NCBI GenBank assembly: GCA_039978775.1
Contig: JBDWAR010000023.1
Location: 18,304-82,303 of the forward strand
DNA from: Luteolibacter sp.
GTDB lineage: Bacteria; Verrucomicrobiota; Verrucomicrobiia; Verrucomicrobiales; Akkermansiaceae
DNA length: 64,000 nt
Direction: 5' to 3'
Made by a program: the position numbers and the translations under genes. This document shows positions 1,237 through 36,599 of the stretch, piece after piece. The notes beneath the pieces were generated by a model that made no database searches, had not been told where the DNA came from, and was given only the letters and a program-made list of their open reading frames with translations. Each line of letters begins with the position of its first letter. Positions within the stretch are counted from its first letter, which is position 1.

Positions 1237-1698
1237 TTAGAGTTTTGTGCCGGCGAGTTTGAGGACTCGGGTGAAATGCTTTTTCTCGACGGGAGTGATG
1301 GAGAGGCGGGTGCCTTTCTGGCAGACCAGCATTTCGGAGAGGATGGTGTCGTCCTTGAGGGTTTGGAGGGGGAGGAGTTCGTCGAAGGTGGCGATGTGTT
1401 CGAAATCGACGAGGTACCAGCGGGGTTTTTCCTCGGTGGCTTTCGGGTCGTAGTATTCGCCTTTTTTATCGAATTGGGTGGGGTCGGGGTAGGAAGCCGA
1501 AGCGACCTTGGCGACGCCTGAGATTCCGGGTGGTTTGGCGTTGGAGTGGTAGAAGAGGGCGAGGTCGCCGGGTTTCATGTCGTGCCACATGAAGTTGCGC
1601 GCCTGGTAGTTGCGAACGCCCGACCATGGCTCCTGCTCGACCTTTTCGAGATCCTGGATGGAGAAGACGTCGGGTTCGGATTTAATCAACCAGTTCAT
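1237..1698 (-). CDS. EVE domain protein (PUA-like)
   Basis: WLIKSEPDVFSI, W.GVRNYQARNFM, GDLALFYHSN, YPDPTQFD..YYDPK, RLSITPV are EVE hallmarks. Confidence 0.93.
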   Translation of the reverse strand: MNWLIKSEPDVFSIQDLEKVEQEPWSGVRNYQARNFMWHDMKPGDLALFYHSNAKPPGISGVAKVASASYPDPTQFDKKGEYYDPKATEEKPRWYLVDFEHIATFDELLPLQTLKDDTILSEMLVCQKGTRLSITPVEKKHFTRVLKLAGTKL

Positions 1699-1780
1699 GG
1701 GTAAATGCTGAAACGCTGAAATACTGAGAAGCTGAAATGGGAATGACGCTGATGGATTTCAGCGTTTCAGATTTTCAGCG
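1699..1780. repeat. Inverted pair of 8-mer (NNCTGAAA) tandem arrays
   Basis: TGCTGAAA CGCTGAAA TACTGAGA AGCTGAAA (1706-1737) faces TTTCAGCG TTTCAGAT TTTCAGCG (1757-1780); 1708-1722 is the exact reverse complement of 1756-1770. Confidence 0.8.
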
Positions 1781-2774
1781 TGTCCGGTTTTACGTTCCGC
1801 AGGACAGACAGGTGTTCGGGGCCGAGTTCGAGGCCGGATTGGGCGCGGAGATCGGATTCGATGGCGTCGAGGACATCGAGTTCCGGTTTGAAATCGGCGG
1901 CGTGATAGGAAGAGCGGACGAGCGGGCCGGATGCGCAGTGGCGGAAGCCTTTGGCGAGGGCGATTTCCTTGTATTCGGCGAATTTATCCGGGTGGATGAA
2001 ATCGACGACGGGGAGGTGCTTCGGGGTCGGGCGCAGGTATTGGCCGAGGGTGAGGACGGTGACGTCGTGGGCGAGCAGGTCGTCCATGGCGGAGAGGATT
2101 TCCTCGTGGCGTTCGCCGAGGCCGAGCATGATGCCGGATTTGGTGGCGACGTGGCCGTTGACCATTTGCTTGGCCTTTTTCAAGACGGTGAGGGAGCGCT
2201 GATACTTCGCACGGGAACGGACGAGCGGGGTGAGGCGTTCGACGGTTTCGAGGTTGTGGTTAAAGATGTGCGGGCGCGCATCCATGACGAGCTGGAGCGC
2301 CCAGTCGCGGTCGTTGAAATCGGGGACGAGGACTTCGATGATGATATCCGGGTTTACCTCGCGGACGGCGCGGATGGTTTCACGGAAATGCTCGGCTCCG
2401 CCGTCCTTGAGGTCGTCGCGGGCGACGGCGGTGATGACGATGTGCTTGAGGTTCATGCGCGAGGTGGCCTCGGCAATGCGGGCCGGCTCGTCGGACTCGA
2501 GGGCATCGGGTTTGGCAGTTTTGACGGCGCAGAAACCGCAGGCGCGGGTGCACTTGTCACCGGCGATCATGAAGGTGGCGGTGCCTTGTCCCCAGCATTC
2601 CCAGCGGTTCGGGCACTGGGCTTCCTCACACACGGTGACCAGCTTGAGGTCGGTGATGAGCGACTTGGTGGACCAGAAGGCGGGGTTGTTGGGCAGGCGG
2701 ACTTTGATCCAATCGGGTTTTTTCTCCCGGTGGAGGCTCGGATCCATCTTCATTTTGGGGCCACAGGCTGACAT
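1767..2774 (-). CDS. lipA: Lipoyl synthase
   Basis: KPDWIKVRLP, CEEAQCPNRWEC, CTRACGFC, FNHNLETV, GQYLRP, GPLVRSSYHA; start placed at ATG 2774. Confidence 0.97.
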   Translation of the reverse strand: MSACGPKMKMDPSLHREKKPDWIKVRLPNNPAFWSTKSLITDLKLVTVCEEAQCPNRWECWGQGTATFMIAGDKCTRACGFCAVKTAKPDALESDEPARIAEATSRMNLKHIVITAVARDDLKDGGAEHFRETIRAVREVNPDIIIEVLVPDFNDRDWALQLVMDARPHIFNHNLETVERLTPLVRSRAKYQRSLTVLKKAKQMVNGHVATKSGIMLGLGERHEEILSAMDDLLAHDVTVLTLGQYLRPTPKHLPVVDFIHPDKFAEYKEIALAKGFRHCASGPLVRSSYHAADFKPELDVLDAIESDLRAQSGLELGPEHLSVLRNVKPDTLKI

Positions 2775-2786
2775 GCGGGCCACCAT

Positions 2787-2885
2787 AAATTTCAAATGCC
2801 AAACTTCAACCCCCAACTCAGGTGACTACTCTAGCTGTTTTGTTGGGATTGGAGGTTGTCAGGTGAAAGTGGAAAATTGAGAGTT
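2787..2885. repeat. Two 7-mer arrays in opposite orientation in the lipA/murI divergent spacer
   Basis: AAATTTC AAATGCC AAACTTC AACCCCC (2787-2814) and GAAAGTG GAAAATT GAGAGTT (2865-2885). Confidence 0.5.
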
Positions 2886-2891
2886 GCCGAC

Positions 2892-3692
2892 GTGAAGCAA
2901 GCAGCGTTGGGATTTTTCGATTCGGGAGTGGGTGGATTGACCGTGGTGCGGGCGGTGCAGGATATGCTGCCGACTGAGGATCTGGTGTATCTGGGGGATA
3001 CGGCGCGGCTGCCCTATGGTTCGAAAAGTGCGGAGACGATCCGCCAATTCGCCCAGGAAGATGTGGATTTTCTGCTTTCGAAAGGGGTAAAAGCCATCGT
3101 TGTGGCCTGCAATACCGCCACGGCGCACGCTTTGCCTGAGTTTTGGAAGGATTGTCCGGTTCCGATCATGGGCGTGATTGCCCCAGGGGTGGAGGCGGCG
3201 CTGGCGGATGCGGGGACCGAGCGGATCGGGATTATTGCGACACGCGGGACGATCGATTCCCACGCCTATCAGCATGCGCTGGCGACCAAGCGCCGGGGGC
3301 TGAGGATTTACGGAGCGGCGACTCCGCTGCTGGTACCGTTGATCGAGGAGAACTGGATTTCCGAGGATGTGACCAAGCAGGTGCTCAGGAAATACCTCGA
3401 TCCACTGCTCGAAAAGGGAATCGACACCCTGATGCTCGGCTGCACGCACTACCCGCTGCTGATCCCGGTGCTGCAGGAAATGCTACCCGATGATGTGCGC
3501 TTGATCGATTCCGCGACGACCTGTGCCGAGCACCTCAAGAAGATGCTGGGGGACAAGGATTTGCTGCGGAGCGATGGGAACGACGGCGGGCTGGAGATCC
3601 ACCTGACGGACTTGTCGGAGCAGTTCGAAGACCTGGCGAAACGTTTCCTGAGACGGCCGACGGGTCGGGTTAGGCGCGCGGTGTTGGGCTAG
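2892..3692 (+). CDS. murI: Glutamate racemase
   Basis: GFFDSGVGGLTV, YLGDTARLPYGSKS, VACNTATA, LMLGCTHYPLL; probable GTG start at 2892. Confidence 0.96.
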   Translation: MKQAALGFFDSGVGGLTVVRAVQDMLPTEDLVYLGDTARLPYGSKSAETIRQFAQEDVDFLLSKGVKAIVVACNTATAHALPEFWKDCPVPIMGVIAPGVEAALADAGTERIGIIATRGTIDSHAYQHALATKRRGLRIYGAATPLLVPLIEENWISEDVTKQVLRKYLDPLLEKGIDTLMLGCTHYPLLIPVLQEMLPDDVRLIDSATTCAEHLKKMLGDKDLLRSDGNDGGLEIHLTDLSEQFEDLAKRFLRRPTGRVRRAVLG

Positions 3693-8367: not shown

Positions 8368-8604
8368 ATGACCGAATCCGATGGGCTTGCGCTGGCCATG
8401 GCCTGCGTGATGGGCACCGCTTTTGTCGTCATCGCCACCCTCCTCTTCTGCATCATCCGCAATGCCTCCAAGCGCGATCCCGAAGTGGACGATCTCATCG
8501 AAGAGGTTGAACAGGAGGAAAAAGCCGGCCGCGAGAAGAAACCCGCCGGCAAGGTGAAGGAACGCGAGGACTGGGAAAAGGACGGCGATTGGTGGAAGCA
8601 GTAG
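8368..8604 (+). CDS. Small single-pass membrane protein
   Basis: MTESDG + hydrophobic ALAMACVMGTAFVVIATLLFCII, charged tail ending WEKDGDWWKQ. Confidence 0.6.
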   Translation: MTESDGLALAMACVMGTAFVVIATLLFCIIRNASKRDPEVDDLIEEVEQEEKAGREKKPAGKVKEREDWEKDGDWWKQ

Positions 8605-8640
8605 GTAAATGCTGAAAGGCTGAAAACTGAAACGCTGAAA
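8604..8640. repeat. 8-mer (NNCTGAAA) array
   Basis: GGTAAA TGCTGAAA GGCTGAAA ACTGAAA CGCTGAAA directly after the stop codon; first 14 nt are identical to 1700-1713. Confidence 0.75.
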
Positions 8641-9013
8641 GATCTCTTGGTCAGTAGGTGGGGAGAATGCGGTGCAAAGCCGTAAGCCGGCTCGGGATGG
8701 CATGTGTGCTAGTCAGTCGATGGAAGTCCCGTTTCCCACAATGTTGACGGAGCGATCCAAAACGATAGCTTCAGGAGCTGAACCAATTCCTCCGGATAGG
8801 GTGGTGCAGTTGTCTCAAAATGCACGAATCGGGGAGGAGCTTTGCACGGGATCGGGGCGGGGTGAGTCGAGATGGAGGGGGGGATAGCTGGTAGGCTAGG
8901 CAATGCTACGACTCCGGAAGATTGGTATGAGGCATGCGATGGATAAGGAAACGCAAGTTGGCTCAGCTGCACTTGTGTAAACCAGTAGTGCCGTTGTGCG
9001 GCGAAATCCTTCT

Positions 9014-10114
9014 ATGAAACTACCTGTGGACACAGACCCCATCAACCCCGCTTCGTTGCCTTCCGCCGGTATGATCGTGCGGGAGAAGGAGCCGGTGAAT
9101 CTGGAAATGCCGTTTGGTTCGCTTGATTCCTTCATCACCCCGGCAGATCAGTTTTATGTGCGCTGCCATCATCCGATCCCGGAGATAGATGCGGAGACAT
9201 GGCGTCTGGAGATCGAAGGCGATGTGGAGAATCCTTTTTCGCTGGGTTATGCGGATCTCGAAGCGATGGAGCGCCGCACGATCACCACGACCATGGAGTG
9301 TGCTGGCAACGGTCGGACGTTTCTTGAGCCGCAGCGTGCGGGTGCGCAGTGGGAAGGTGGTGCCGTGGGAACCGCAGAATGGACGGGGGTGCCGCTCGCC
9401 GATCTGTTGACGCGGGCGGGTGTGCGCGCCTCCGCACGTGAGGTGATCCTGATCGGCGCGGATTTGGGAGAGATCAAGGAGCCACCGCGGCCGGAAGGGG
9501 AAATCCACTACTCCCGCAGCCTGCCGCTAAAGAAGGCCACGGATGACGTGCTGTTGGCCATGGCAATGAACGGGCAACGCATTGCTCCTTCCCACGGTTT
9601 TCCGCTGCGGGCTGTCGTGCCCGGCTGGTATGGAATGGCAGCGGTGAAATGGCTCACGCGCATCGTGGTGAGCAGTGAGCCCTATCAAGGCTATTACCAG
9701 ACGATTGATTACTCCTACTGGGAACGCGGATCCACCGCGCCGACGCTGATCCCCATCACCGAGATGCGGGTGAAGGCACAGATCGCGAGGCCGGGCTATG
9801 CTGAGGCGGTGCCTGCCGGGCAGCCCTACCGGGTGCATGGCGCGGCGTGGACCGGGGGAGCGGAAATCACCCGGGTGGAAGTGAGCACCGACGGGGGCAA
9901 GCAATGGAACGACGCGACCCTGCTGGGCGAAGCGGTGCGGGATGCATGGCGGCTGTGGGAGTATGAATGGGCGGTGCCTGACCAGACGGGTGAGACGGTT
10001 CTGATGGCGCGGGCCACTGATTCCCTAGGGCGCACACAGCCACCGCAGCATCACGATGATCGCAGCAGTTACCTCATCCATCACTGGCTCCCGGTCAAAG
10101 TGCTGATCCGCTAA
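9014..10114 (+). CDS. Sulfite oxidase family molybdopterin oxidoreductase (no haem domain, no signal peptide)
   Basis: NLEMP, FYVRCH, ECAGNGR (Mo-ligand Cys), HGFPLRAVVPGWYGMAAVKWL, RVEVSTDGG, dimerisation domain. Confidence 0.92.
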   Translation: MKLPVDTDPINPASLPSAGMIVREKEPVNLEMPFGSLDSFITPADQFYVRCHHPIPEIDAETWRLEIEGDVENPFSLGYADLEAMERRTITTTMECAGNGRTFLEPQRAGAQWEGGAVGTAEWTGVPLADLLTRAGVRASAREVILIGADLGEIKEPPRPEGEIHYSRSLPLKKATDDVLLAMAMNGQRIAPSHGFPLRAVVPGWYGMAAVKWLTRIVVSSEPYQGYYQTIDYSYWERGSTAPTLIPITEMRVKAQIARPGYAEAVPAGQPYRVHGAAWTGGAEITRVEVSTDGGKQWNDATLLGEAVRDAWRLWEYEWAVPDQTGETVLMARATDSLGRTQPPQHHDDRSSYLIHHWLPVKVLIR

Positions 10115-10157
10115 ACTTCTGAGAAATCTTTCACTACAACCCTAACCCACCAACATC

Positions 10158-10616
10158 ATGAAACCATCAATACGAAAAATTGCCCTCGCGGCGCTCATCC
10201 TATTGCCAACCCTCAGCTTTGCCGCAGAGCACTCCGGCGATGCAGCGGAAAAGCCTCACAAGATTGTCTTCCAAGTGGTGATGGACGGGCCGGAGAAATG
10301 GGAAGGAGCTTTCCGCAACGTGGAGAATGTCATCAAGGAGCTGGGCGCGGAAACCACCGAGATCGAGGTGGTCGCCCACAGCAAGGGCCTGGGCATGCTC
10401 TTGGCGAAAACCTACGCGGAGCATCCGGAGATGAAGGAGAAGCTCGATGAACTCCATGCCAACGGCGTGGTCTTTGTCGCCTGTGAAAACACCATGAAGC
10501 GCAAAGGGGTGGAAAAGAAGGATCTGGTTGAGATCGCCACCACAGTTCCTTCCGGCGTGGCCGAAGTGGTCCTCAAGCAGGAGGCAGGATACTCCTACAT
10601 CAAGGCCGGCGACTGA
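10158..10616 (+). CDS. Exported DsrE/DsrF-like protein
   Basis: Signal peptide; HKIVFQV, IEVVAH..GL, FVACENTM, VPSGVAEVVLKQEAGYSYIK. Confidence 0.85.
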   Translation: MKPSIRKIALAALILLPTLSFAAEHSGDAAEKPHKIVFQVVMDGPEKWEGAFRNVENVIKELGAETTEIEVVAHSKGLGMLLAKTYAEHPEMKEKLDELHANGVVFVACENTMKRKGVEKKDLVEIATTVPSGVAEVVLKQEAGYSYIKAGD

Positions 10617-10669
10617 CGGGGAAACGCCTCCGCGCTGGCTGTGCGGCAGGATGAGCGGCCGCGTGCCGC

Positions 10670-11083
10670 TCAGGAACGCTTGGTGGCGAACTGGGCGAAA
10701 CTTTGCTTATCGAGTAAGCCGAGCATTTTCTTCTGGGTGCTGACGTAGAACTCGTGGAGGGGGCAGATCGGACCGGTCTCGCACCAACCGGGACCGAAGG
10801 GGCACATCAGGCGTTTGTCGGGGTCGTCGAATATTTTCACGACATCGAGCAGAGAGATTTTCGCCGGGGGGCGGGTTAGGGTGTAGCCTCCGGAGGGGCC
10901 GGGCTTGCCATTCACGAGGCCAGCGGTGGAGAGGATGGTGAGGATTTTTGCGACGAGGGCGCGCGAGAGGTTGCGTTCGGCGGCAATTTCGGCGCTTCCG
11001 ATCAGGCGGTCTTCATCGGCCACCGAGGCGAGATAACTGACGGCGGCGATTCCGCTTTGGGCGAGTTTGCTGTAACTAAGCAT
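10670..11083 (-). CDS. Rrf2 family transcriptional regulator (three-Cys, probable Fe-S type)
   Basis: IAAERNLSRALVAKIL..L, GKPGPSGGYTLTRPP.KISLLDVV, CPFGPGWCETGPICPLH. Confidence 0.92.
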   Translation of the reverse strand: MLSYSKLAQSGIAAVSYLASVADEDRLIGSAEIAAERNLSRALVAKILTILSTAGLVNGKPGPSGGYTLTRPPAKISLLDVVKIFDDPDKRLMCPFGPGWCETGPICPLHEFYVSTQKKMLGLLDKQSFAQFATKRS

Positions 11084-11169
11084 GGGTGGAATGTTTGAGT
11101 GCGGCTTGAGTGGTGGGCCAAGGGCGCTGAATGCGGCGACCATAACGTAAGATTGTAGCATGGCTCTTA

Positions 11170-11187
11170 AAAGAAGCTAAATTCTTT
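11170..11187. promoter_or_regulatory. Candidate Rrf2 operator (AAAGAA-N6-TTCTTT)
   Basis: AT-rich inverted repeat between the divergent rrf2 and globin genes; similar site at 14759-14774. Confidence 0.4.
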
Positions 11188-11290
11188 ATTTGCTTTCAAA
11201 GAGGGGCGGATGGGGGGATGATGCGGGGCGTCCGGGCGAGTCAGGATTTTCTGCGACGAGGGCGGGCACGCCAAGCGATAGAAGACACTG

Positions 11291-11776
11291 ATGATGAAAG
11301 ACAGCCACGAAGAGAAAGAAGGAAAGCCGGATCTACTGGGGCGTCCCGGGATCGAGAAATTGGTGGATGTGTTTTACCGCAAGGTTCGGGCGGACGAGGG
11401 GTTGGGTCATGTCTTCGACGGGGTGGCGAAGGTGAACTGGGAGACGCATCTGCCAAAGATCTGCGACTTTTGGGATACGGTGATCTTTCGCGCCGGGACC
11501 TTCCGGGGAAATCCGTTGGCGGTGCATGGCAAGATGCTGGCGGAGACGAAGCTGCCGTGGGCACTCTTCGAGCGGTGGTTGGAATTGTTCCGGGAGACGG
11601 TGGACGAGCTTTTCGCCGGGGAGAACGCGGGGCACATCGTGCGCAGTGCGGAGGACATGGCGGGGGTGATCTATTCGAAAATCCACGGCATCCCCAATCC
11701 ACGCCACGATCCTGCACTACTGACACCGGAGCAAAAGGCGCGTTACGCGAGCTACCGGGAGAAGGCCGGGAACTAA
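11291..11776 (+). CDS. Group III truncated haemoglobin
   Basis: IEKLVDVFYRKVRAD..LGHVF, WETHLPKICDFW, FRGNPLAVH, FERWLELFRETVDELF. Confidence 0.9.
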   Translation: MMKDSHEEKEGKPDLLGRPGIEKLVDVFYRKVRADEGLGHVFDGVAKVNWETHLPKICDFWDTVIFRAGTFRGNPLAVHGKMLAETKLPWALFERWLELFRETVDELFAGENAGHIVRSAEDMAGVIYSKIHGIPNPRHDPALLTPEQKARYASYREKAGN

Positions 11777-11805
11777 GTTTTTTAGATCGGAAGTGGTCTG
11801 AATGA

Positions 11806-11858
11806 AACGCGGACTTTAGTCCGCCGCGCCCGATTTGCTGCGGACTAAAGTCCGCGTT
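11806..11858. repeat. REP-like doublet / bidirectional terminator
   Basis: AACGCGGACTTTAGTCCGC (11806-11824) and its exact reverse complement (11840-11858); each arm is itself palindromic; lies between convergent genes. Confidence 0.85.
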
Positions 11859-11868
11859 CCGTTTTTTA

Positions 11869-12462
11869 TTACGGCTTTTCGGCTGCTTTTAGGGCTTTCA
11901 CCGAGGCCTCGGGGCCTTCCTGGGAGTCGATCCATTTGTGGACGATTCTGCCGTCTGGAGCGATGGTGGCGATGAGGTAGGAGTGGGCGAAATCGACTCC
12001 GTTGGGGAGGCGGTCGAAGCGAACTCCCAAGATGACGGCCATTTCTAGCAGTGCGTCTTCTTCGCTACGCAGGACATCCCAGCGCTCGGAGAGCTTGTGA
12101 TTGTCGGCGAGGGTTTTGAGGGCGGCTTGGTCGTCGCTTTCCGGATCCAGGGTGATGAAGGTGAAACGCGCCTTGGACTCGGGGGCGAGTTCCTTTTCAA
12201 TGCGCTGCATGTCTGCGATGATACGTGGGCAGATGCCTTTGCAGGTGGCGTAGCCGAGGGCGACGACACGCGGGGTGCCGGCAGATTCCGACCATTTGAG
12301 CGCTTTGCCATTCTGATCCTGCCAAGTGGAATCCAGCGCGTAGATCGACTCCTCCGGAAGATCCGCTTGGGCTGGGGGAACCGGATGGGGAGCTTCTTTT
12401 TCCGCGTTGAGCGCCAGTGCGGCGGAGAGGATGGCGATAGGTATGAGGAGATGGCGTTTCAT
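11869..12462 (-). CDS. SCO1/SenC copper chaperone
   Basis: Signal peptide; GYATCKGICP (CxxxC), FITLDPESD, DFAHS. Confidence 0.9.
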   Translation of the reverse strand: MKRHLLIPIAILSAALALNAEKEAPHPVPPAQADLPEESIYALDSTWQDQNGKALKWSESAGTPRVVALGYATCKGICPRIIADMQRIEKELAPESKARFTFITLDPESDDQAALKTLADNHKLSERWDVLRSEEDALLEMAVILGVRFDRLPNGVDFAHSYLIATIAPDGRIVHKWIDSQEGPEASVKALKAAEKP

Positions 12463-13256
12463 GGGTTTGGGTCGGGTGAAGGTTCGGCGTCTCGCGCTCC
12501 GCGGAAGCCGAGGCCGGGCAGGCAGAAATCGCCTTTCAGAGAAGAGCGGAAGGCCATGCGCATGAAGTTTGCGTATTCGGTGGCCTGGTTCGGGTCGGCA
12601 CCGCCACCGCCGCAGAATTGCTGGGCGTTGAGTGTGCCATCGGAGCGTGCTTCGCCACTGGTCATGGCGGAGACAAAGTTCGCGGTCCATTCCCAGACGA
12701 TGCCGTGCATGCCAGTGGCACCGTAGATGTTAGATTCACCTTTGGTGACATCGGGAAGCACGTCGGGGGTGGGGCGGGAGTACCAATCGAGGATCTTGGT
12801 TTTGAAAGTGGGATCATCGTTGGCGTCGATGGAGTGGAGATTGGCGCGTGCGACAAATTCCCATTCATCGACGGAGGGTAGGCGTTTGTCGACGGATTTC
12901 AAGAAGGCGCGGGCGGCGAACCATGAGATGCAGACGACGGGAGCGTCCGGCGGGGCGTTGGGGCCCAGTTCGGTATCGCCCGCCCATTTCGAGAGGTAGC
13001 CTTGATCGGCGAAAAGACGCTTCACCCGCGAGCGTTGCCACTCCGGGTGTTGCGTAACGAACGCGAGAAACTCGGCGTTCGTGGTTTGACGCACATCGAT
13101 GAGAAAGTCTTCGACAGTTCTGGTTTTTCCGTCCTTTTCAAGCGGCCTCTCGTAGGTGCCGCCTGTGACGGGCACCATGAGTGAGGTGGGGATCTCTACG
13201 GCCACCGCGGTAAGGCAGAGGCCGATCGAGATGAGGAACTGTCGGAGGGGACTCAT
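12459..13256 (-). CDS. nirV: Formylglycine-generating-enzyme-fold protein, NirV-like
   Basis: PVVCISWFAARAF, RLPSVDEWEFVA, GMHGIVWEWT, GFRGA; translationally coupled to nirK. Confidence 0.75.
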   Translation of the reverse strand: MSPLRQFLISIGLCLTAVAVEIPTSLMVPVTGGTYERPLEKDGKTRTVEDFLIDVRQTTNAEFLAFVTQHPEWQRSRVKRLFADQGYLSKWAGDTELGPNAPPDAPVVCISWFAARAFLKSVDKRLPSVDEWEFVARANLHSIDANDDPTFKTKILDWYSRPTPDVLPDVTKGESNIYGATGMHGIVWEWTANFVSAMTSGEARSDGTLNAQQFCGGGGADPNQATEYANFMRMAFRSSLKGDFCLPGLGFRGARDAEPSPDPNP

Positions 13257-14704
13257 TATTTTGCGCGTGCTTTGGCGACTTCGTCAGGGGTGACTTCCCA
13301 GCCTGCGTTTTCCCATGAGTTGGAGACGTAGGTGAGCACGTTGGCAACGTCCTCGTCGTTGAGGGTGAGGGCAGGCATGACGCTGTTGTATTTGTTGCCG
13401 TTGACAGTAACCTCACCGCTGAGGCCGTGGATCACGGTGTTGATCGCCCTATCCTTGTCGGCATTCAGGTAATCCGAGCCGGCGAGGGGAGGGAATGCGG
13501 CAGGGATGCCCTGGCCTTCCGCCTGGTGGCAAGCGATGCAGTTGGTAGCGTAAACGTTCTTGCCGCGATCGATGCGCTCTTGCTTGGTATTCGCTGCTGC
13601 AAGAGGAGTTCCTTGATCCGGCATGGTCTGTGGGGTGCCGCCTTCGGGAAGGTAGATGTTGTCGCTGCGCTTGCCGGAATAGACGAGCGGATCCGGCTCA
13701 CCCTCGACATTGATCATGGCGATGGCTCCTTTGTTGAATGCACGGGTCAGCGCGTGATCGACGAGGATCACTTTTCCGGGAACGTCCACTTTGAACTCAA
13801 CCATTGCCGCGCCGCCTGGGGGGACCAGGGTTGTCTGAACGTTGGAATTGATCAAACTAAGGCCGCCTTCGACATAGACCTTGTCGAAGATTTCACCGAT
13901 GGCATGGAAAGATGAACTCAGGTTGGGGCCGCCGTTTCCAAAGAAGATGCGGACGGTTTCGCCCTTGGTTACGTTGGGGGTGTTTTCGCCGAGCATGCTG
14001 CCGACACTGCCGTTGAAGACCACGTAATCGGGTCTTTCGTCGATGGCTTTCTCCATGGAGAAGGGTTGCAGACCTTGCTCGCCGTTGCGGCCTTTGGTGT
14101 AGAAGTCGCCCTGCATGACGTAGAACTCATGATCCACCTTTGGCAGGCCTTCTTTGGGCTCCACATAGATGAGGCCATACATGCCGTTGGCCACGTGCAT
14201 GCCGACCGGTGCGACCGCGCAGTGGTAAACGTAGAGGCCGGGATTGAGCACGCGGAACGAGAATGTCGTGCTGTGGCCGGGTGCCGTGAAGGATGCTGCA
14301 GCGCCACCCCCGGGACCGTTGACTGCATGAAGGTCGATGTTGTGGGGCATCTTGTTGCCGGGACGGTTCATCAGTTCGAACTCAACGACATCACCCTCGC
14401 GGACGCGGATGAAAGAGCCGGGGACGGTGCCACCGAATGTCCAGAACGTGTAGTCCACGCCATCGGTCATTTTCATGACTTTTTCGACCACTTCGAGCTT
14501 CACGTGGACTTTGGTCGCATGGTCGCGCTCGATGGCTGGCGGGACGTGGGGTGGGCTGGTGAGTTGGGCGGTTTCTTCGCCCGTCACGTCGGCTGGCATC
14601 GTGATGTCGCCGGTGGCGAGGTGTTCTTCCTCGGCAGTGGAGATTCCGGCAGCCATTGCGGATGCGAAGCTCAATACTCTGATGGCATTTTTTATGTTTT
14701 TCAT
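13256..14704 (-). CDS. nirK: Copper-containing nitrite reductase with C-terminal cytochrome c
   Basis: [55 protein letters not shown]; C-terminal CIACH ... MPAL haem c domain; Sec signal. Confidence 0.96.
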
Positions 14705-14833
14705 AAAGAGGTACTCTGGGTTACCTCATCATGATGAATCAAAGTGGCGAACCTAATCAAGAATAATCATTCGTTAATATGAGGTCAGGTGCAACGGGGT
14801 GGCTGAAGTGGGCGGCATAGATCGTAAGCCCGC

Positions 14834-15493
14834 TTAATCACCTGCGCCCAGTATGCCGATGCGGTAGGCTTTGCTGATGGCCGCCGGGGCGTTCTGCACA
14901 TCGAATTTTTCGTAGATGTGGCGGACGTGGGTGGCCACGGTGAAGGCGCTGATATCGAGTTCCGTGGAGATTTCCTTTTTCACTTTTCCTTCGCTGAGCA
15001 GCTTGAGGATTTCGATCTCGCGCTCTGAGAGCGGGCACTTCTCCTGAGGTTTAGGCAGCTTGGGCTGCAAGGTTTCCATCATCAAGCGGGCGACCAAGGG
15101 ATCGAGCGATGCGCCGCCATTCATGACGGTCTGGATGCCTTCTCGGATCTGGGTGGTGCTGGCGGATTTCATCAGGTAGCCGTCGGCTCCCATCGAGATG
15201 CAGCTCAGGATGTCGTTTTTCCGGTCGGACTGGGTGAGGATGATGATCTTGATGTCCGGGTGGTATTCGCGGAACAAGGGGAGAGCTTCCATCCCTGTCA
15301 TGCCGGGCAGATTGAGGTCGAGTAAAACGAGGTCGGGTCGGCCGCTGCGGCTCTGGAGCTCGCGCAGAGCGACTTCCGCCGTGCCGAACTGGCTGCTGAG
15401 TTCCATGTCCTGCTGGTCTTCCAGGGCGCAGGCGATGCCCATTCGGTAAGCGCGGTTGTCTTCCACCAGCATGATTTTTGTTTTTCGGTTCAT
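14834..15493 (-). CDS. NarL/LuxR family response regulator
   Basis: IMLVED, VLLDLNLPGM, GYLMK, LSEREIEIL.LLSEG..KKEI..EL.IS.FTVATH. Confidence 0.95.
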   Translation of the reverse strand: MNRKTKIMLVEDNRAYRMGIACALEDQQDMELSSQFGTAEVALRELQSRSGRPDLVLLDLNLPGMTGMEALPLFREYHPDIKIIILTQSDRKNDILSCISMGADGYLMKSASTTQIREGIQTVMNGGASLDPLVARLMMETLQPKLPKPQEKCPLSEREIEILKLLSEGKVKKEISTELDISAFTVATHVRHIYEKFDVQNAPAAISKAYRIGILGAGD

Positions 15494-15576
15494 GGGATTG
15501 TTTTGGGACGATGGGACAATATAGGTGCTTCGCGGTTTTTTTGGAACAGAATCCATCAGTCGTAGGAATATGCGAG

Positions 15577-17571
15577 TCAGAGCCATGAGCCGAAGTTAAG
15601 GAGTTTCTTCGGTTGGACTTTCAGGGTGATGCGTGTGCCGCCCTCTTCCGGGCTTTCGACGTTCACCTTGCCGCCGAGAAGCCGGGCGCGGCGTTTGAGC
15701 GAAGGAGGGGTATGGAGCCCCGCGATGCCGGATCCGTTGTCGGTGACGCGGAGGCGGATGTTCCTGGAGTCGGCGGACAGAATGGTCTGCACGCGGGTGG
15801 CGCCGGAGTGGCGGAGGATGTTGGTGAGGCATTCCTTATAGAAGCGGAACAGGCCGTTGCGGCGGCGAGGAGAGAGGGAGCGAATGATCTCGTCGTCGGT
15901 GATAGTGAGGGTGTGCTGCATATCGGCGAGGAGGCGGTCGGCCATCCGCTTCATTTCACCTGAGAGATCGGCGTAGAGGTCTTTTGCAGCAAGCAGGTTG
16001 GTGCAGTAGCGCGCGGTGGCACCGGTCTCTGTGGTGAGGGCACAGACGGCGTCGGTGTATTCCATGAGCTTGCTCCATTTGCCGTTATCGTTTTTCTCCT
16101 CCACCTCCTGCTTGGCGAGGTTCCCGAACAGCCCGATGGCATAGAGGTTGGCGCCGAGTTCATCATGCAGGTTCGCGGCGATGCGTTCGCGTGTCTCGAA
16201 GATGGCGCGTTGGCGGGCGGCCTTCTGGATGAGAACGAGGATGATGCCCCCGGCCAGCATGAAGGCGATCAGCCATCCCGCATATTTCAGGGTGGCCCTT
16301 TGTTTGGCGTAGCGCGCGGAGAGTTCGGCGATCACACGCGGGCGTTCCACTTCCAGATCGTGGCGGAGCGCCAGTTGGTTCATCCATGTCCGCACAGGCA
16401 GGATCTCTCCATACAAATTGAAGCCATCCGTCAGCACTCCGAAAGAGCGGGTGGCTGGGTGGAGTGTTCCGGTGCCGCTGATGGGTTTGCCCAATGCGAC
16501 GTTGCGCCCCGCAGCGAGCACCTCGATCTCGGCGAAGCCGATCTGGAAAAGTTCCTGCTCCGGATTGGCATCGGTGATGCGGACGTAACGGCAGCGGGTT
16601 TCTGGGAAGCTCCACATCATGATCGAGCCGATGTCGTCGAAGCTATCGAACTGGAAATCCAGTAGTTCCGTGGCATCCAAAAAACCGGGATCATTGGCAC
16701 CTTCGACTTTCAGGTGCAAAGGGATGCCGAAATTGCCGGGGTGTGCCTGCGGGACCGTATCGCTTTGCTCGACCGCATGCAGATGGATGCCGGAAATCAA
16801 AATGGATTCTCCGAGATCGACGGTTAAGGAAGGGTTTTGGGCGGGCTGGCTGACGTAGGCCACGCTCTTTTTCCCCAGCGCTCCGTCCATCAGGTAGGGC
16901 AGGTTGCCATCCGTCAGGAAACGCGATCCCCATGTCCTTTGCAGTCGCTCGATGTGGTTCGATGAAGCCGTCACCGGCTGGCGCAACGCGACATTTTCAT
17001 CCCCGCTGAAAACCAGAACCTCGGAGAGTTGGAATACGTGGCGGCCATCGAATGATCGGGCGGCGAGTTGGGTTGCCTCGATTCTCACCCAGGACGCGGT
17101 GGTTCCTTTTTTCACGGGCACGACCAGCGGTGCGATGCGCGGCAGCAGGTGTGCGGTGGATGGGTAGTTTGCGATGACGGTACCGTTGCTGTCCCCGTCG
17201 GTTCCGGCGAGGATACGGAATGAGATGGGAAAAGCGTCGGCTTCGAATCCCTGTTTGGAATCGCGCCAAAGGAGCGGAGCCAGCACCACTTGGTCGATAG
17301 TATATTCCCTGCCGAGATCGATTTTGATCCATTCGGTGTGATCCCCGCTTTTGTGGCTACTCGAGCGGAATCCGATGGCACCGATGCCGCCCCGCAGGCT
17401 GGGCTGCGCCAATTCATCAAGCTGCTCGTCGATTTCGGCCAACCGTTGTTCGAGCGACGGTAGGGTGGCGGAGCCGAGTGCATCAATTGCACCCTCTTCG
17501 GCGAACAGGGCGAGGCCTCCCATGAGGGCGGTTCCTATAGCGATGGTGACTCTCAACACAGCAACCCTCAT
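15577..17571 (-). CDS. Sensor histidine kinase (HisKA_3) with periplasmic F5/8C galactose-binding-like domains
   Basis: Signal peptide; WIKIDLG..Y.ID.VVL, YVRIT, NVALGKP; TM YAGWLIAFMLAGGIILVLI; RIAANLHDELG; VTDNGSG. Confidence 0.88.
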   Translation of the reverse strand: MRVAVLRVTIAIGTALMGGLALFAEEGAIDALGSATLPSLEQRLAEIDEQLDELAQPSLRGGIGAIGFRSSSHKSGDHTEWIKIDLGREYTIDQVVLAPLLWRDSKQGFEADAFPISFRILAGTDGDSNGTVIANYPSTAHLLPRIAPLVVPVKKGTTASWVRIEATQLAARSFDGRHVFQLSEVLVFSGDENVALRQPVTASSNHIERLQRTWGSRFLTDGNLPYLMDGALGKKSVAYVSQPAQNPSLTVDLGESILISGIHLHAVEQSDTVPQAHPGNFGIPLHLKVEGANDPGFLDATELLDFQFDSFDDIGSIMMWSFPETRCRYVRITDANPEQELFQIGFAEIEVLAAGRNVALGKPISGTGTLHPATRSFGVLTDGFNLYGEILPVRTWMNQLALRHDLEVERPRVIAELSARYAKQRATLKYAGWLIAFMLAGGIILVLIQKAARQRAIFETRERIAANLHDELGANLYAIGLFGNLAKQEVEEKNDNGKWSKLMEYTDAVCALTTETGATARYCTNLLAAKDLYADLSGEMKRMADRLLADMQHTLTITDDEIIRSLSPRRRNGLFRFYKECLTNILRHSGATRVQTILSADSRNIRLRVTDNGSGIAGLHTPPSLKRRARLLGGKVNVESPEEGGTRITLKVQPKKLLNFGSWL

Positions 17572-32435: not shown

Positions 32436-33155
32436 TTACCTGAGGCCTTTGAGGGCTTTGGCGCTGGGCTTTTTGAAGACCAGATCGGTGATGGATTGGC
32501 GGCGGCCGTTGTTGGGGTCGTGGGTGGCGACCTGCATTTTCTCGAGCACCCATACGCCATCGCCGACTTTCATGACGTCTTCGACCTGGAATTCCTTCAC
32601 GAGCGTACCGTTTTTGTCGTGGCCACGGATGCGCATGAAGGCGCCGTATTTCGTGTGGATCCAGACATAAACGCCTTCGTAGCGGCCGGGAGCACCGCCG
32701 GGTTTGTTGAGGCGCAGACGGTAGCATTCCTCGGTTCCGACCCTTTCGGTGCCTTCGAGTTTGGGATTCGGCCAGTAGAAGAAACGCAGGGCGAGATCTT
32801 CGTAGGTCATATCGGTGCCGGCGACGGATTCGGTCATTTTGTTTCTCGGGAAGTCCCGGGTTTTTCCATCGATGATCTCGAAGAGGTCGTATTTGTCATC
32901 GGCGAGGCGCATGTGGAAGACTCGCCATTTCTTGTTCTCATAATACTGGAACTGAATGTTTTTGCCCTTGAGGAAGATTGTGATGGGGATTTTCCGCCCG
33001 TTGTGGGAGAGGTAGCCCTCCAGGCCTTCGTCGAGCTCGGTGAGGGTGGCAGAGAGGCGGGCACCTTCGAGGATGCGATTGGCATCCTGAGCGTGAGCGA
33101 CGAAAGGAGCGGCGGTAGCGAGAATGGCCGTGGCGAGAACGATAAGTTTTTTCAT
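32436..33155 (-). CDS. Outer-membrane lipoprotein-sorting (LolA-like) protein
   Basis: Signal peptide; SVAGTDMTYEDL, EECYRLRL, YEGVYVWI. Confidence 0.7.
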   Translation of the reverse strand: MKKLIVLATAILATAAPFVAHAQDANRILEGARLSATLTELDEGLEGYLSHNGRKIPITIFLKGKNIQFQYYENKKWRVFHMRLADDKYDLFEIIDGKTRDFPRNKMTESVAGTDMTYEDLALRFFYWPNPKLEGTERVGTEECYRLRLNKPGGAPGRYEGVYVWIHTKYGAFMRIRGHDKNGTLVKEFQVEDVMKVGDGVWVLEKMQVATHDPNNGRRQSITDLVFKKPSAKALKGLR

Positions 33156-33318: not shown

Positions 33319-34245
33319 TCAGTAGGAGTGGGATCCACGGGTGTGTGGATCCGGGTCTGTCACCGGAGGATGCGGTGGCGGTGGCGGGAAGCTGATGAAA
33401 GGCTTGTCGAGCGGGTTAGGCAGTCTTTCGGGAGGAGTGACCGAAGCCACTGCATCTTTCGCGTCCTTGCCGCTTTTGGAGTCCTTTGCGCTGTAGCTGC
33501 TGTCGCCGCGGTTCGGATCGAGCTTTGCGAGAACCGCTTGCACGTTGGGAAGTGCTTCGGGAAGTGCGGCGATCGCGCACTGAGAGATCATGCGCATAGC
33601 ATCGGGATTGGCCGTGATGGCTACCTCGGCGATGTTACCGACCAGTTCCGGATCTGCACCGGAGGTGATGATCGCGGCTTTCACGATTTCACAGGAGCAG
33701 TTTGGATTGGCAGTTATCTCTGCCTCGACGATTTCGAGAACTTTCGAAAGGTCGACTTCGATGCGGTGACCGACCGAGAGAGAGAGAGCGTCGCAGTCGA
33801 CGGAGTCTTCGGAAGGTTTTTGGTAAGCTGCGGAGAGCTCTGCAAGGCCTGCTTGGATTCCGGATGCCTGCTCGGCAGAGACTTGCACCTTGATGCGAGT
33901 GGCATTGCGATAGGCTGAGGTTTCCTCAAGCACGGAGAGATCCAACACGTTTTTAGTGCTCTTCGCGGAAGCGGTGCGGGTGCTGAGAGTCAGGGCGTCC
34001 TGATTCACGAAAACCGGTTTGCTTTCGGAAAGATCGCCCTTGGATTTCCGGACGGTAGGCAGTTGGAGCACACCACTGAGAGCTTTGTCTGCTGCAAACG
34101 ATGGCTTTTCTGGTGAGTAAACGCCTTCGGTTTTCTCACTAGCTGCGGTTTTATCGAGTGGGACTTCGATCAATTGCGCACTTGCCGGAAGGGCGCAGCA
34201 CAGGCTGATCAGGAAGGCCACGTTGGGGGAGACGTGAATTTTCAT
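33319..34245 (-). CDS. Exported hypothetical protein with helical repeats and Pro-rich tail
   Basis: Signal peptide; VLEIVEAEITANPNCSCEIVKAAI...; tail FPPPPPHPP. Confidence 0.7.
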   Translation of the reverse strand: MKIHVSPNVAFLISLCCALPASAQLIEVPLDKTAASEKTEGVYSPEKPSFAADKALSGVLQLPTVRKSKGDLSESKPVFVNQDALTLSTRTASAKSTKNVLDLSVLEETSAYRNATRIKVQVSAEQASGIQAGLAELSAAYQKPSEDSVDCDALSLSVGHRIEVDLSKVLEIVEAEITANPNCSCEIVKAAIITSGADPELVGNIAEVAITANPDAMRMISQCAIAALPEALPNVQAVLAKLDPNRGDSSYSAKDSKSGKDAKDAVASVTPPERLPNPLDKPFISFPPPPPHPPVTDPDPHTRGSHSY

Positions 34246-34412: not shown

Positions 34413-36599
34413 TCAGCGTGCGGAAATGGAAACCGCGCAGGCCTTGTAGTTGGGCTGTCGAGAATGTGGATCGAAGGAGCTGTGGGTGAGTCGGTTAACC
34501 TCCGGATAATGCATGGGGATGAAAATCTGCCCTTGCTGGACGGTGGGAGCGATGTAAGCCGAGGCCTCCAAGTTCCCCCTGCGAGAAGCGATGTGGAGTA
34601 TCTGGCGGTCTGAAACGCCGAGTTTTCCGGCGTCGAGCGGGTGGATTTCCACGTAAATATTCTCGGGGTAGAGTTTTTTGAGGAGCGAGGATTTCGAGGT
34701 GCGGGATTGGGTGTGCCACTGGCTGCTGGTGCCCCGGCCGGTGAGGAGCAGGAACGGGTATAGCTCATCGGGAGGCTCCGGCATCTCGGCGGGAGGGGAG
34801 AAGTGGATTTTGGCCTTTCCGGACGCGGTGTAGAATTTGCCATCGGCAAAGAGTCGGCGTTCTGGGGTTTCATCAGGAGATTTCTCCGGAAACGGCCACT
34901 GGATGCCGCCCATCTCGTCGATGTGATCGTAGTCCCTGACGCCGGTGATGTCGCATGGCTGGTCGGCGGAAATTTCCCGCAGGAGTCCGAAGGCCGCTTC
35001 TGGGTGGGTCCATTTCTTGAAATGTTCGCCGCAGCCCCATGCATCGGCGATGAGGCGGAAGATGCGGAAATCGGTGAGTGCTTGGCCGGGAGCCTTACGC
35101 ACTGGCTTGATGTTGCCGATGCGGCGCTCCGAGTTGATGAAGCAGCCATCCTTTTCGCCCCATGCGGCGGCGGGGAGGACAAGATCGGCGAGGCGTGCCG
35201 ATTCCGTGGTGTGGTACATGTCCTGGACGACGAGGAAATCGAGGTTGGCGCGGAGCTTGGCGATTTTTTCGGAGTCGACCCAGGAGTGGAAAGGATTGGT
35301 GGCGATGATCCAGAGGCCTTTGATTTTTCCCTCGGTGACGGCATCGAGGATTTCGTCGTAGGCGAGGGATGTCTGGGAGGTGATGTTTTCGTAGGGGATT
35401 TCGAGGATGTCCGAGATCTTGCGGCGGTGAGTCTCGTTGGCGAAGTCGTGGCCACCGACTAGACTTGTAGTATTTGAGAAAAGACGCGAGCCCATGGCAT
35501 TGCATTGGCCGGTGACAGAGTTCGGGCCAGTGCCGGGTTTGCCGATGTTGCCGGTGATGAGGCAGAGGTTGATGATGGCCTGGGCGGTGCGGGTGCCTTC
35601 GTAGGATTGGTTTACACCCATGGTCCACCACCAGGAAACGCGCTTTTCCGGATCGGAAACGGTGAGAGCGAGCGCTTCGATGGCTGCGGTGCTGAGGCCG
35701 GTTTTTTCCGAGACTGAGGCAGGGGAGTAATCTTTTACGAACTCTGAGAATGCCTCGATGCCTTCGGTGTTGGCGATGGATGTGGCGTCGATGCGACCGT
35801 CGCGCAGGATGCAATGGGTGATAGCGTAGAGCAGGGCGAGATCGCCTTTGGGCTTGAGCGCGACGTGTCGGGTGGCGGCTTGGGCGGTTTCGGTCGCGCG
35901 GGGATCGATAACAATGATTTCTGGTGAACGCTTATTTCGCATCACCCGCTGCCAGAGGATGGGGTGGGCGATGCAGAGATTTGCGCCGACGAGGACGATG
36001 ACATCACTTTCCTCGAAATCCGCGTAGGCACCCGGAGGGGCGTCGAATCCGAAAGACTGCTTGTAGGCGGTCGCGGCGGTGGCCATGCACTGGCGGGTGT
36101 TGGCATCGGCATTGATGAAGCCCATGCCGAATTTGAACAGGCAGCCGAGAAAGGCCATTTCCTCGAAAGGGATCTGGCCGGTGGAGAGGAAGGCGACCGA
36201 CTCCGGGCCGTGCTTCTCTTTGATGGATTTGAAATGGCTGGTGAAGGCATTGAGCGCGGTTTGCCAATCGGTCTCGACAAGTTTCCCCGACTCATCCCGC
36301 AGCAGGGGGGCGGTGGCGCGGTCGGGGGAGTCGAGCGGATCGAGTGCCTGCCAGCCTTTAGGGCAGGCCATGCCGAGGTTGACCGGATAACTCGCCTGCG
36401 GGGAGAGATTGATGGCCCGCCCATTTTCATCGAGATGGAGCTTCAGCTGGCAGCCGGTGGCGCAGTAGCCGCAGATCGAAGTGGTGGTGGAGACGGGTGC
36501 GAGCCGGGCAGGGATTTTCCCGAGGCCGAAGCGGCCGGGCTCCTGGACGAGATCTTCGGTAAGCGGCCCGGTGTGGGATTTCAGAGAGAAAAGGGACAT
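34413..36599 (-). CDS. nasA: Assimilatory nitrate reductase catalytic subunit (NasA/NarB type, Mo-bisMGD)
   Basis: CGYCATGC...CPKG 4Fe-4S motif, [55 protein letters not shown]. Confidence 0.92.

Follow-up and report, generated by a model that had tools for sequence, protein, structure and literature searches.

In Proteobacteria, the control of copper nitrite reductase (nirK) and globin genes by the Rrf2 family regulator NsrR is textbook knowledge, and NsrR regulons include the nirK cluster of Nitrosomonas europaea, aniA/norB of Neisseria and hmp of Escherichia coli. Copper nitrite reductases with a C-terminal heme domain have already been described for Verrucomicrobia, as has their frequent linkage to nirV (Decleyre et al., 2016; PMC4770552). 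The nirV gene is located immediately 3' of nirK in Rhodobacter sphaeroides (Jain and Shapleigh, 2001, cited in PMC4770552) and in the nnrS-nirK-nirV/norCBQD plasmid cluster of Phaeobacter inhibens (PMC10356946), and both hosts are aerobes without Nar or Nap that convert external nitrite to nitric oxide (NO). NirK without an NO reductase is common in genome surveys, and how the respective organisms cope with their own NO is poorly understood. Here, we analyzed a 64,000-nucleotide stretch of contig JBDWAR010000023.1 from Luteolibacter sp. (assembly GCA_039978775.1), referred to as the window, in which nirK, nirV and a gene for a SCO1/SenC-type protein lie beside genes for a group III truncated globin, an Rrf2 regulator, a DsrE-like protein and a molybdenum enzyme of the sulfite oxidase (SUOX) fold. 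We consider it likely that two functionally separate units stand side by side in a variable chromosome stretch of this Akkermansiaceae-type (Verrucomicrobiales) bacterium, namely a nitrite-to-NO module (10670-14776) and a SUOX-DsrE pair (9014-10616) that would not belong to it.

Gene identities were derived from the list of open reading frames (ORFs), from profile searches with Pfam and TIGR/NF equivalog models and from sequence alignments with entries of the Protein Data Bank (PDB), and all coordinates are positions in the 64-kb window. An earlier note on this DNA had claimed seven contiguous redox genes between 9014 and 14704. All seven were found by ORF list and profile searches, and only two start codons had to be amended: the SCO ORF was listed with 273 aa, which is too long, its true start being the ATG at 12462, and the Rrf2 start is most likely 11083, replacing 11161. 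The genes form four transcription units instead of the three that had been claimed, i.e. SUOX-dsrE (plus strand), rrf2 (minus), globin (plus) and nirK-nirV-sco (minus). Within the latter, nirK and nirV overlap by 1 nt and nirV and sco by 4 nt, with the sco ATG residing within the nirV stop (ATGA), and these overlapping start and stop codons point to translational coupling. The globin gene is monocistronic. Two GC-rich hairpins at 11809-11856, GCGGACTTTAGTCCGC and GCGGACTAAAGTCCGC, each followed by a T-run, are predicted to serve as a bidirectional terminator between it and the convergent end of sco. Signal peptides were found for NirK, NirV, SCO and the DsrE-like protein and are missing from the molybdenum enzyme, the globin and Rrf2.

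To learn which of these genes belong together, the NirK protein was searched in 301 genomes of the same order. About 58 other genomes contain full-length or fragmentary cytochrome c-fused NirK, none of them from the same genus. Forty of these nirK genes were taken with 10 kb on each side and compared with the window proteins by tblastn. The nirV and sco genes followed nirK in 39 of the 40 loci, the one exception being cut by a contig end. A globin gene occurred within 10 kb of nirK in 24/40 loci, and in 14/40 it immediately preceded nirK in the same orientation; rrf2 was close by in 15/40. Neither SUOX nor DsrE was present in a single one of the 40 loci. Fifteen further loci from Luteolibacter and Akkermansiaceae metagenome-assembled genomes were reached via the globin, with NirK identities of up to 80%. 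These show either a divergent rrf2/globin pair or exactly the layout of the window, again with SUOX and DsrE absent. The exact layout, with globin convergent to sco-nirV-nirK, was encountered in loci L097 and L103, and in the nearest nirK relatives (L034, L097 and L103) the five genes are contiguous in varying orientations. Counted per genome, 49 of 58 nirK-positive and 53 of 242 nirK-negative genomes contain the globin (odds ratio 19). Hence we conclude that the five nitrite/NO genes are a recurrent unit and that the set of seven is not. The synteny check suggested by the earlier note thus came out in favor of the nitrite/NO part, as nirK-nirV-sco, globin and rrf2 recur together across the order. 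The same note had named missing co-conservation of SUOX/DsrE with nirK as evidence that would speak against its proposal, and the two are indeed not co-conserved.

NirK (13256-14704, minus strand) scored above the curated equivalog cut-off (TIGR02376, 364.2 versus 296.3 bits) and aligned over residues 44-480 with the enzyme from Pseudoalteromonas haloplanktis (PhNiR, 2ZOO, E 2.7e-193) and likewise along its length with that from Ralstonia pickettii (RpNiR, 3ZIY/4AX3; E 4e-182 for 3ZIY). The copper-site blocks HNIDLH, YHC...H...M, SSFH and VDH and the heme motif CIACH are all retained. Type 1 copper ligands (His, Cys, His, Met), type 2 copper ligands (three His) and the catalytic Asp and His lie in blocks, including LVDHAL, that are identical to 2ZOO. 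The C-terminal class I cytochrome c (PF00034, 5.9e-14, residues 379-463) matched the 2ZOO heme domain up to residue 480. The copper motifs and the fused CxxCH domain reported earlier are therefore conserved with respect to both structures, and the protein is, as judged from its sequence, a three-domain copper nitrite reductase with fused C-terminal cytochrome c and a Sec signal peptide. The enzyme itself does not differ appreciably from PhNiR and RpNiR; only host and gene neighborhood do. NirV (12459-13256, minus strand; PF03781 FGE-sulfatase, 2.7e-24), an exported FGE/SUMF1-domain protein, is encoded by the second gene of the operon, directly downstream of nirK. The third gene, sco (11869-12462, minus strand; PF02630, 3.2e-16, 59.9 bits versus a cut-off of 22.8), specifies a protein with a CKGIC motif and, in the translation, a distal His in FAHSY, which is probably a periplasmic copper chaperone or thiol-disulfide protein. 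This third coupled gene distinguishes the operon from those of R. sphaeroides and P. inhibens. In addition, an Rrf2 regulator is present here where these organisms have Crp/Fnr-type NnrR, and NnrS and cNOR are replaced by a group III globin, the genome in question being devoid of any NO reductase.

The regulator gene (10670-11083, minus strand; PF02082, 3e-26) encodes a protein with three conserved cysteines in a potential ligand motif, C-x6-C-x5-C-x2-H, read in translation as CPFGPGWCETGPICPLH, and this Cys3-His arrangement resembles that of IscR. The protein scored above the cut-off of TIGR00738 and below those of the NsrR, IscR and SufR equivalogs. Among proteins of solved structure, the redox sensor RsrR is its closest relative (6HSD, 1e-11), and the PDB matches at E <= 1e-3 did not include NsrR. 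Its previous description as 'NsrR-like' is therefore adequate with regard to genomic context and logic and does not hold for family membership. As in NsrR regulons, the gene for a putative Fe-S Rrf2 repressor stands next to those for a copper nitrite reductase and a globin, and palindromic operators are predicted in the promoters. The differences are that the regulator is not an NsrR orthologue and has Cys3 plus His in its ligand motif, and that its operator was defined solely by comparative genomics.

This operator emerged from a comparison of the regions upstream of nirK, globin and rrf2 across loci as a 20-bp palindrome with the consensus TAMRGAA-N6-TTCYKTA (also written TAAnGAA-N6-TTCnTTA). 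Sites with two or fewer mismatches were counted, with random segments of the same loci as well as shuffled sequences as controls. The operator was found upstream of rrf2 in 11 of 16 loci (random segments, 1.9%), upstream of the globin gene in 10 of 24 (1.1%) and upstream of nirK in 7 of 41 (1.2%). Its presence tracks that of rrf2 in the locus, as is to be expected for the operator of the Rrf2 protein. When its own site was left out of the weight matrix, the best match in the entire 64-kb window was 11169-11188 (21.8 bits) in the divergent rrf2/globin intergenic region, AAAAGAAGCTAAATTCTTTA, with the palindrome AAAGAA-N6-TTCTTT. The third-best match (12.0 bits) resides in front of nirK at 14757-14776, in its promoter and 53-72 bp away from the ATG, and reads TAACGAA-TGATTA-TTCTTGA on the minus strand. 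The same matrix gave no match of at least 10 bits upstream of the SUOX gene in the window. Sites were also found in the expected promoters of six loci outside the training set of the matrix (L094, L095, L097, L100, L101 and L103). An alignment of the nirK promoter of the window with those of its two closest loci, L097 and L103, showed TAACGAA-N6-TTCTTGA as the sole conserved block in regions that have otherwise diverged. A genome-wide scan ranked the rrf2/globin site first, with a matrix that included this site, and other high-scoring matches mostly fell inside coding regions. Taken together, these patterns make it very probable that Rrf2 acts on its own gene, on the globin gene and, via the weaker site, on nirK-nirV-sco.

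Other candidate signals were less informative. The pattern RGAA-N6-TTCY on its own was not enriched in the window (8 found versus 4.9 expected), so that only the full 20-bp palindrome carries information. An FNR/Dnr-type TTGAT-N4-ATCAA box was not seen in the nirK promoter upon inspection by eye. A sigma-70 promoter scan of 8500-15000 gave no match, and the operators were therefore not placed relative to -35/-10 elements. The histidine kinase/response regulator pair encoded upstream of nirK (14834-17571) was considered as a nirK regulator and rejected, because none of the 40 related nirK loci contains it. Just two of the ten best remaining operator matches in the genome are intergenic, C4:215076-215095 (AACGGAAAGTGATTTCCGTT, 20.0 bits) and C22:17797-17816 (TGAGGAAGATGATTTCCTGA, 17.9 bits), and these may mark further members of the regulon.

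The globin gene (11291-11776, plus strand) encodes a protein that matches Ctb from Campylobacter jejuni (2IG3, 1.1e-14), with TyrB10, HisE7, TrpG8 and the proximal HisF8 aligned (FYrKV, wetH, ERWL and avH). Matches to group I globins had E values of 0.014 or worse, and the Pfam Bac_globin model stayed below its cut-off (14.6 versus 21 bits), which we would expect for group III. The protein is thus classified from its sequence as a cytoplasmic group III (P-type) truncated hemoglobin. Ctb, which belongs to the NssR regulon together with Cgb, shares globin class and distal pocket (TyrB10, HisE7, TrpG8) with the protein studied here, which would likewise be part of a regulon of the nitrosative stress type. 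In C. jejuni, however, the regulator is the Crp/Fnr family member NssR and not an Rrf2 protein. Furthermore, the globin from the window is genomically tied to an NO-producing enzyme and is not accompanied by a single-domain globin or flavohemoglobin for the main detoxification. We found no paper on a nirK-linked group III globin or on the operator described above, within an incomplete coverage of the literature. The only other globin in the genome is a second truncated one (C4:41454-41744, minus strand, locus L093), which matches Bac_globin with 5e-24 and hence falls into group I or II.

We then asked which enzymes for the further conversion of NO are encoded in the genome (96.9% complete, 0.06% contamination). 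True nor clusters with NorC, NorB containing the motif WWVVHLWVEG, NorQ and NorD adjoin nirK in 6 of the 40 relatives (7 for NorD), and a NorE-like gene does so in 8. None of these NorB, NorC, NorQ, NorD and NorE-like proteins had a tblastn match in the genome under study. NnrS, encoded next to nirK in 18/40 relatives, was likewise absent, and so was an AlgE-like porin. NosZ was not found with TIGR04246 (clade II), a model that was positive in 12 of 151 relatives of the order and was used instead of PF18764, which gave no match in any control genome and was thus uninformative. Hmp-type globin and Hcp were absent in searches whose positive controls worked. Neither Nar nor Nap is encoded, as the only bis(pyranopterin guanine dinucleotide) molybdoenzymes are a NasA-like protein, a YdeP-like protein and NuoG. 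The earlier statement that the window contains no NO reductase gene is therefore correct and extends to the rest of the genome. The proposed genome search for norB and nosZ retrieved neither of them, and a canonical nor operon elsewhere, which had been seen as a danger to the proposal, was not there. With norB, nosZ, Hmp, Hcp and NnrS missing, NirK would make NO without a canonical sink.

Three heme-copper oxidase homologues (PF00115) are encoded in the genome, a fused cbb3-type CcoNO, an aa3-type CtaD and a degenerate one. The aa3- and cbb3-type oxidases fit an aerobe or microaerobe, in agreement with the aerobic host that had been presumed. The third homologue (C14:13988-15220), which has a FixO-like partner, was examined as a hidden NO reductase and rejected: compared with CcoN (3MK7), the three histidines of CuB, both heme histidines of helix X and the cross-link Tyr are lost, and the protein is unlinked to nirK in relatives. 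It comprises 499 aa (PF00115, 4.6e-39; C14:12488-16720, locus L003, ORF 1423-2922, plus strand), is flanked by genes for a cytochrome c and the FixO-like protein just upstream of the aa3 genes and looks like a catalytically dead oxidase subunit. With respect to nitrogen assimilation, a NasA/NasC-like assimilatory nitrate reductase is encoded within the window (34413-36599, minus strand; NF041323, 7.5e-143, under its cut-off) as the sole nitrate-reductase-type molybdoenzyme of the genome. The ORFs beside it, 33319-34245 and 32436-33155, had no family match. Two siroheme reductases of the NirA/Sir type are also present in the genome.

The second unit starts with the gene for the SUOX-fold enzyme (9014(8996)-10114, plus strand), which consists of the molybdenum domain (PF00174 Oxidored_molyb, 4.5e-60) and the dimerization domain (PF03404 Mo-co_dimer, 2.4e-15) and has no heme domain. 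In the alignment with SorA (2BLF, 1.6e-54), the Arg and His of FYVRCHH, the molybdenum-ligating Cys of MECAGNGR and the active-site Tyr all match. Plant sulfite oxidase (1OGP), SorA and SorT (4PW3) likewise combine the two domains with the molybdenum-binding Cys and with Arg, His and Tyr of the sulfite pocket. Scores nevertheless stayed below the sulfite dehydrogenase equivalogs (246 versus 600 for SorA, 221 versus 420 for SoxC, 211 versus 570 for SorT). Unlike these enzymes, the protein has neither a Tat or Sec signal nor a gene for a cytochrome c partner, the adjacent gene being dsrE-like, and the missing signal peptide indicates a cytoplasmic location. This second gene (10158-10616, plus strand; PF02635, 1.8e-10, 41.4 bits versus a cut-off of 22.7) begins 43 bp after the SUOX gene, with which it is probably co-transcribed. 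Its product matches MTH1491 (1L1S, 2.8e-12) including the Cys of ACxNT, the conserved Cys being found in FVACENT. The signal peptide at its N-terminus agrees with the claimed export, and no gene for DsrF, DsrH or TusA lies beside it according to the ORF list of the window, the rest of the genome not having been searched.

Of the 300 other genomes, only 8 contain a SUOX orthologue (52-79% identity), and the numerous further matches are paralogues with 35-40% identity. The neighbors of the orthologues encode a persulfide dioxygenase (PDO)-rhodanese fusion, halves of a YeeE/YedE sulfur transporter, DUF2243 and a SulP/STAS permease, and a linkage to sorB or sox genes was not seen. A DsrE-like gene directly follows the SUOX orthologue in locus L077 and belongs to the same sulfur cluster as the orthologue in L081. 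In the genome studied here, the orthologous PDO-rhodanese gene is located on another contig together with two yeeE genes (C18:559533-562080). The position of SUOX orthologues among PDO-rhodanese, YeeE and SulP genes assigns the SUOX-DsrE pair to sulfur detoxification. The most economical reading is that the molybdenum enzyme would be a cytoplasmic, plant-type heme-less sulfite oxidase removing sulfite made by persulfide dioxygenase, with the exported DsrE-like protein as a putative accessory carrier of sulfur. Both would complete a PDO-rhodanese/YeeE pathway encoded elsewhere that leads from sulfide or persulfide via sulfite to sulfate.

For the first unit, we propose the following sequence of events. 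In the periplasm, NirK would convert nitrite to NO, the electrons reaching the enzyme via its own fused cytochrome c. NirV, as an FGE-like accessory protein, would aid NirK maturation, and SCO, as a copper chaperone, probably serves the NirK copper sites. The cytoplasmic Rrf2 Fe-S regulator would bind two sites, the palindrome in the promoter region of its own and the globin gene and the weaker version in front of nirK. Its cluster may then be damaged or modified by NO, or by a redox change linked to it, such that Rrf2 leaves its operators and repression, should the protein act as a repressor and not as an activator, is lifted. The globin would thereupon be made in step with NirK and may bind NO that has leaked into the cytoplasm or convert it by dioxygenation, being the only NO-reactive protein dedicated to the module. 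Most of the NO would leave the cell by diffusion, because NorB, NosZ, Hmp, Hcp and NnrS are all missing from the genome. The NO make-and-scavenge unit put forward in the earlier note is hence supported for the nitrite/NO genes, which recur together, have an operator in common and occur in a genome devoid of the canonical NO-consuming proteins, and is not supported for the sulfur genes.

Several points weigh against this picture. The regulator is no NsrR orthologue (NF008240, 41.2 bits versus a cut-off of 182), and its sensing of NO is for this reason assumed from the genomic context. The operator consensus was partly derived from the same loci in which the sites were counted. At 12 bits, the site in the nirK promoter is weak and becomes noticeable only through the two orthologous promoters. 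Co-regulation of nirK, globin and rrf2 is predicted from motif conservation. Ctb is induced by nitrosative stress via NssR, yet conferred no protection against NO in C. jejuni mutants or upon complementation of E. coli hmp, and for the group III globin from Helicobacter pullorum, whose rate of reaction with NO is about 3e5 M-1 s-1, complementation of hmp required overexpression (PMC5577044). The host appears to be a one-step 'denitrifier' that converts periplasmic nitrite to NO and has no recognized enzymatic sink besides truncated globins, flavodiiron proteins and cytochrome c'/P460 not having been searched, and at a completeness of about 97% a missing nor cluster is not fully excludable.

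A more far-reaching proposal, which we regard as tentative and rather doubtful, is that the globin is a dedicated partner of NirK in Verrucomicrobiales lacking NO reductase. Under the control of Rrf2, it would then serve as an NO dioxygenase or NO buffer and convert NirK-derived NO back to nitrate, which could in turn be assimilated by the NasA-type and the siroheme nitrite/sulfite-type reductases. If true, this would provide group III globins with a defined role and reveal a new lineage of Rrf2 NO sensors with its own operator.

Conversely, the nirK operon could be a respiratory or electron-sink device for low oxygen (a truncated denitrification of one step) or a device for interaction through emitted NO, with the globin and Rrf2 involved in oxygen or redox homeostasis and NO simply released. 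In line with this, the rrf2/globin pair is found without nearby nirK in loci L095, L098 and L099, the globin occurs in the 53 nirK-negative genomes mentioned above, and a redox sensor, RsrR, is the closest solved relative of the regulator. Ctb has moreover been linked to oxygen metabolism (PMC5577044), and in P. inhibens NO derived from nirK is released under oxic conditions and affects algae (PMC10356946). On the other hand, in 14 loci the nirK operon begins with the globin gene, whose operator also occurs in nirK promoters, and this speaks for a role connected with NirK activity and not with oxygen alone. We judge this explanation unlikely as a whole; a role of the globin in oxygen handling stays a serious alternative in view of the findings on Ctb and the H. 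pullorum globin.

It is also conceivable, albeit improbable in our judgment, that rrf2 and globin stand next to nirK-nirV-sco by coincidence, as two accessory cassettes in one variable region, and that Rrf2 regulates only itself and the globin. The strong operator is indeed confined to the rrf2/globin intergenic region, and few nirK promoters carry a site with two or fewer mismatches. Furthermore, synteny with genomes of the same genus ends after a gene for a YlbF-like protein and a small ORF at about 8600, and the whole block lies beyond this break; the same-genus relatives are too distant (69% identity or less in the flanking protein) for exact borders of an island to be drawn. These observations are outweighed by the contiguity of the same five genes in L034, L097 and L103 despite varying orientations, by the nirK-promoter site as the single conserved block among three diverged promoters and by the strong association at the genome level.

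SUOX-family enzymes are able to reduce nitrite to NO in vitro. Even so, a single integrated nitrogen-sulfur module of all seven genes, with sulfite oxidation or DsrE-mediated sulfur trafficking coupled to nitrite reduction or NO handling, is very improbable. The genes are contiguous in this genome and SUOX orthologues reside mostly in nirK-bearing genomes (6/8 versus 52/292; Fisher p = 8e-4, uncorrected for phylogeny), but SUOX and DsrE are missing from all 40 nirK and all 15 globin loci, the orthologues belong to sulfur-oxidation clusters far from nirK, no common operator lies upstream of SUOX, and the molybdenum enzyme is cytoplasmic whereas NirK is periplasmic. The link to sulfur redox through the molybdenum enzyme and DsrE suggested in the earlier note is not supported on these grounds. 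The co-occurrence with nirK, which was noted for genomes G070, G142, G026, G192, G240 and G121 with the genes never being neighbors, rests on about four to five independent lineages, and the two genes are some 1 Mb apart on one contig of G192. Given the few lineages and the distance, we treat it as an ecological correlation pending phylogenetic correction; it persists as a residual hint of an ecological or functional connection, and in this respect it counts against the separation of the two units. A nitrogen-sulfur 'super-module' is not a conserved entity: two ordinary units happen to adjoin each other in one genome.

For the separate nitrite-to-NO unit, components and logic were already known, and the additions, a conserved association with a group III globin and the operator, are modest. 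The locus and its relatives offer a compact and testable case that comprises a single regulator, a 20-bp operator, a globin and a nitrite reductase. They also provide a genomic handle on the physiological role of group III truncated globins, and an aerobic host of this kind may release NO to its neighbors.

Additional genes were observed next to nirK in relatives. A gene for an AlgE-like 'Alginate_exp' outer-membrane porin often follows nirK-nirV-sco (15/40 loci, e.g. L051:11946-13259 and L060:11953-13152), and its product might be a channel for nitrite or NO. In G067:C45:26877-31550, a clade II nosZ directly adjoins a globin-nirK-nirV-sco operon, which means that the number of downstream denitrification genes accompanying the module varies from none to a more complete set. 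In locus L073 (G146:C464, 6420-8846), a fused cbb3 oxidase gene, ccoNO, is situated immediately upstream of nirK. It is 63% identical to the copy in the genome studied here, and this neighborhood hints at a common micro-oxic electron-transport context.

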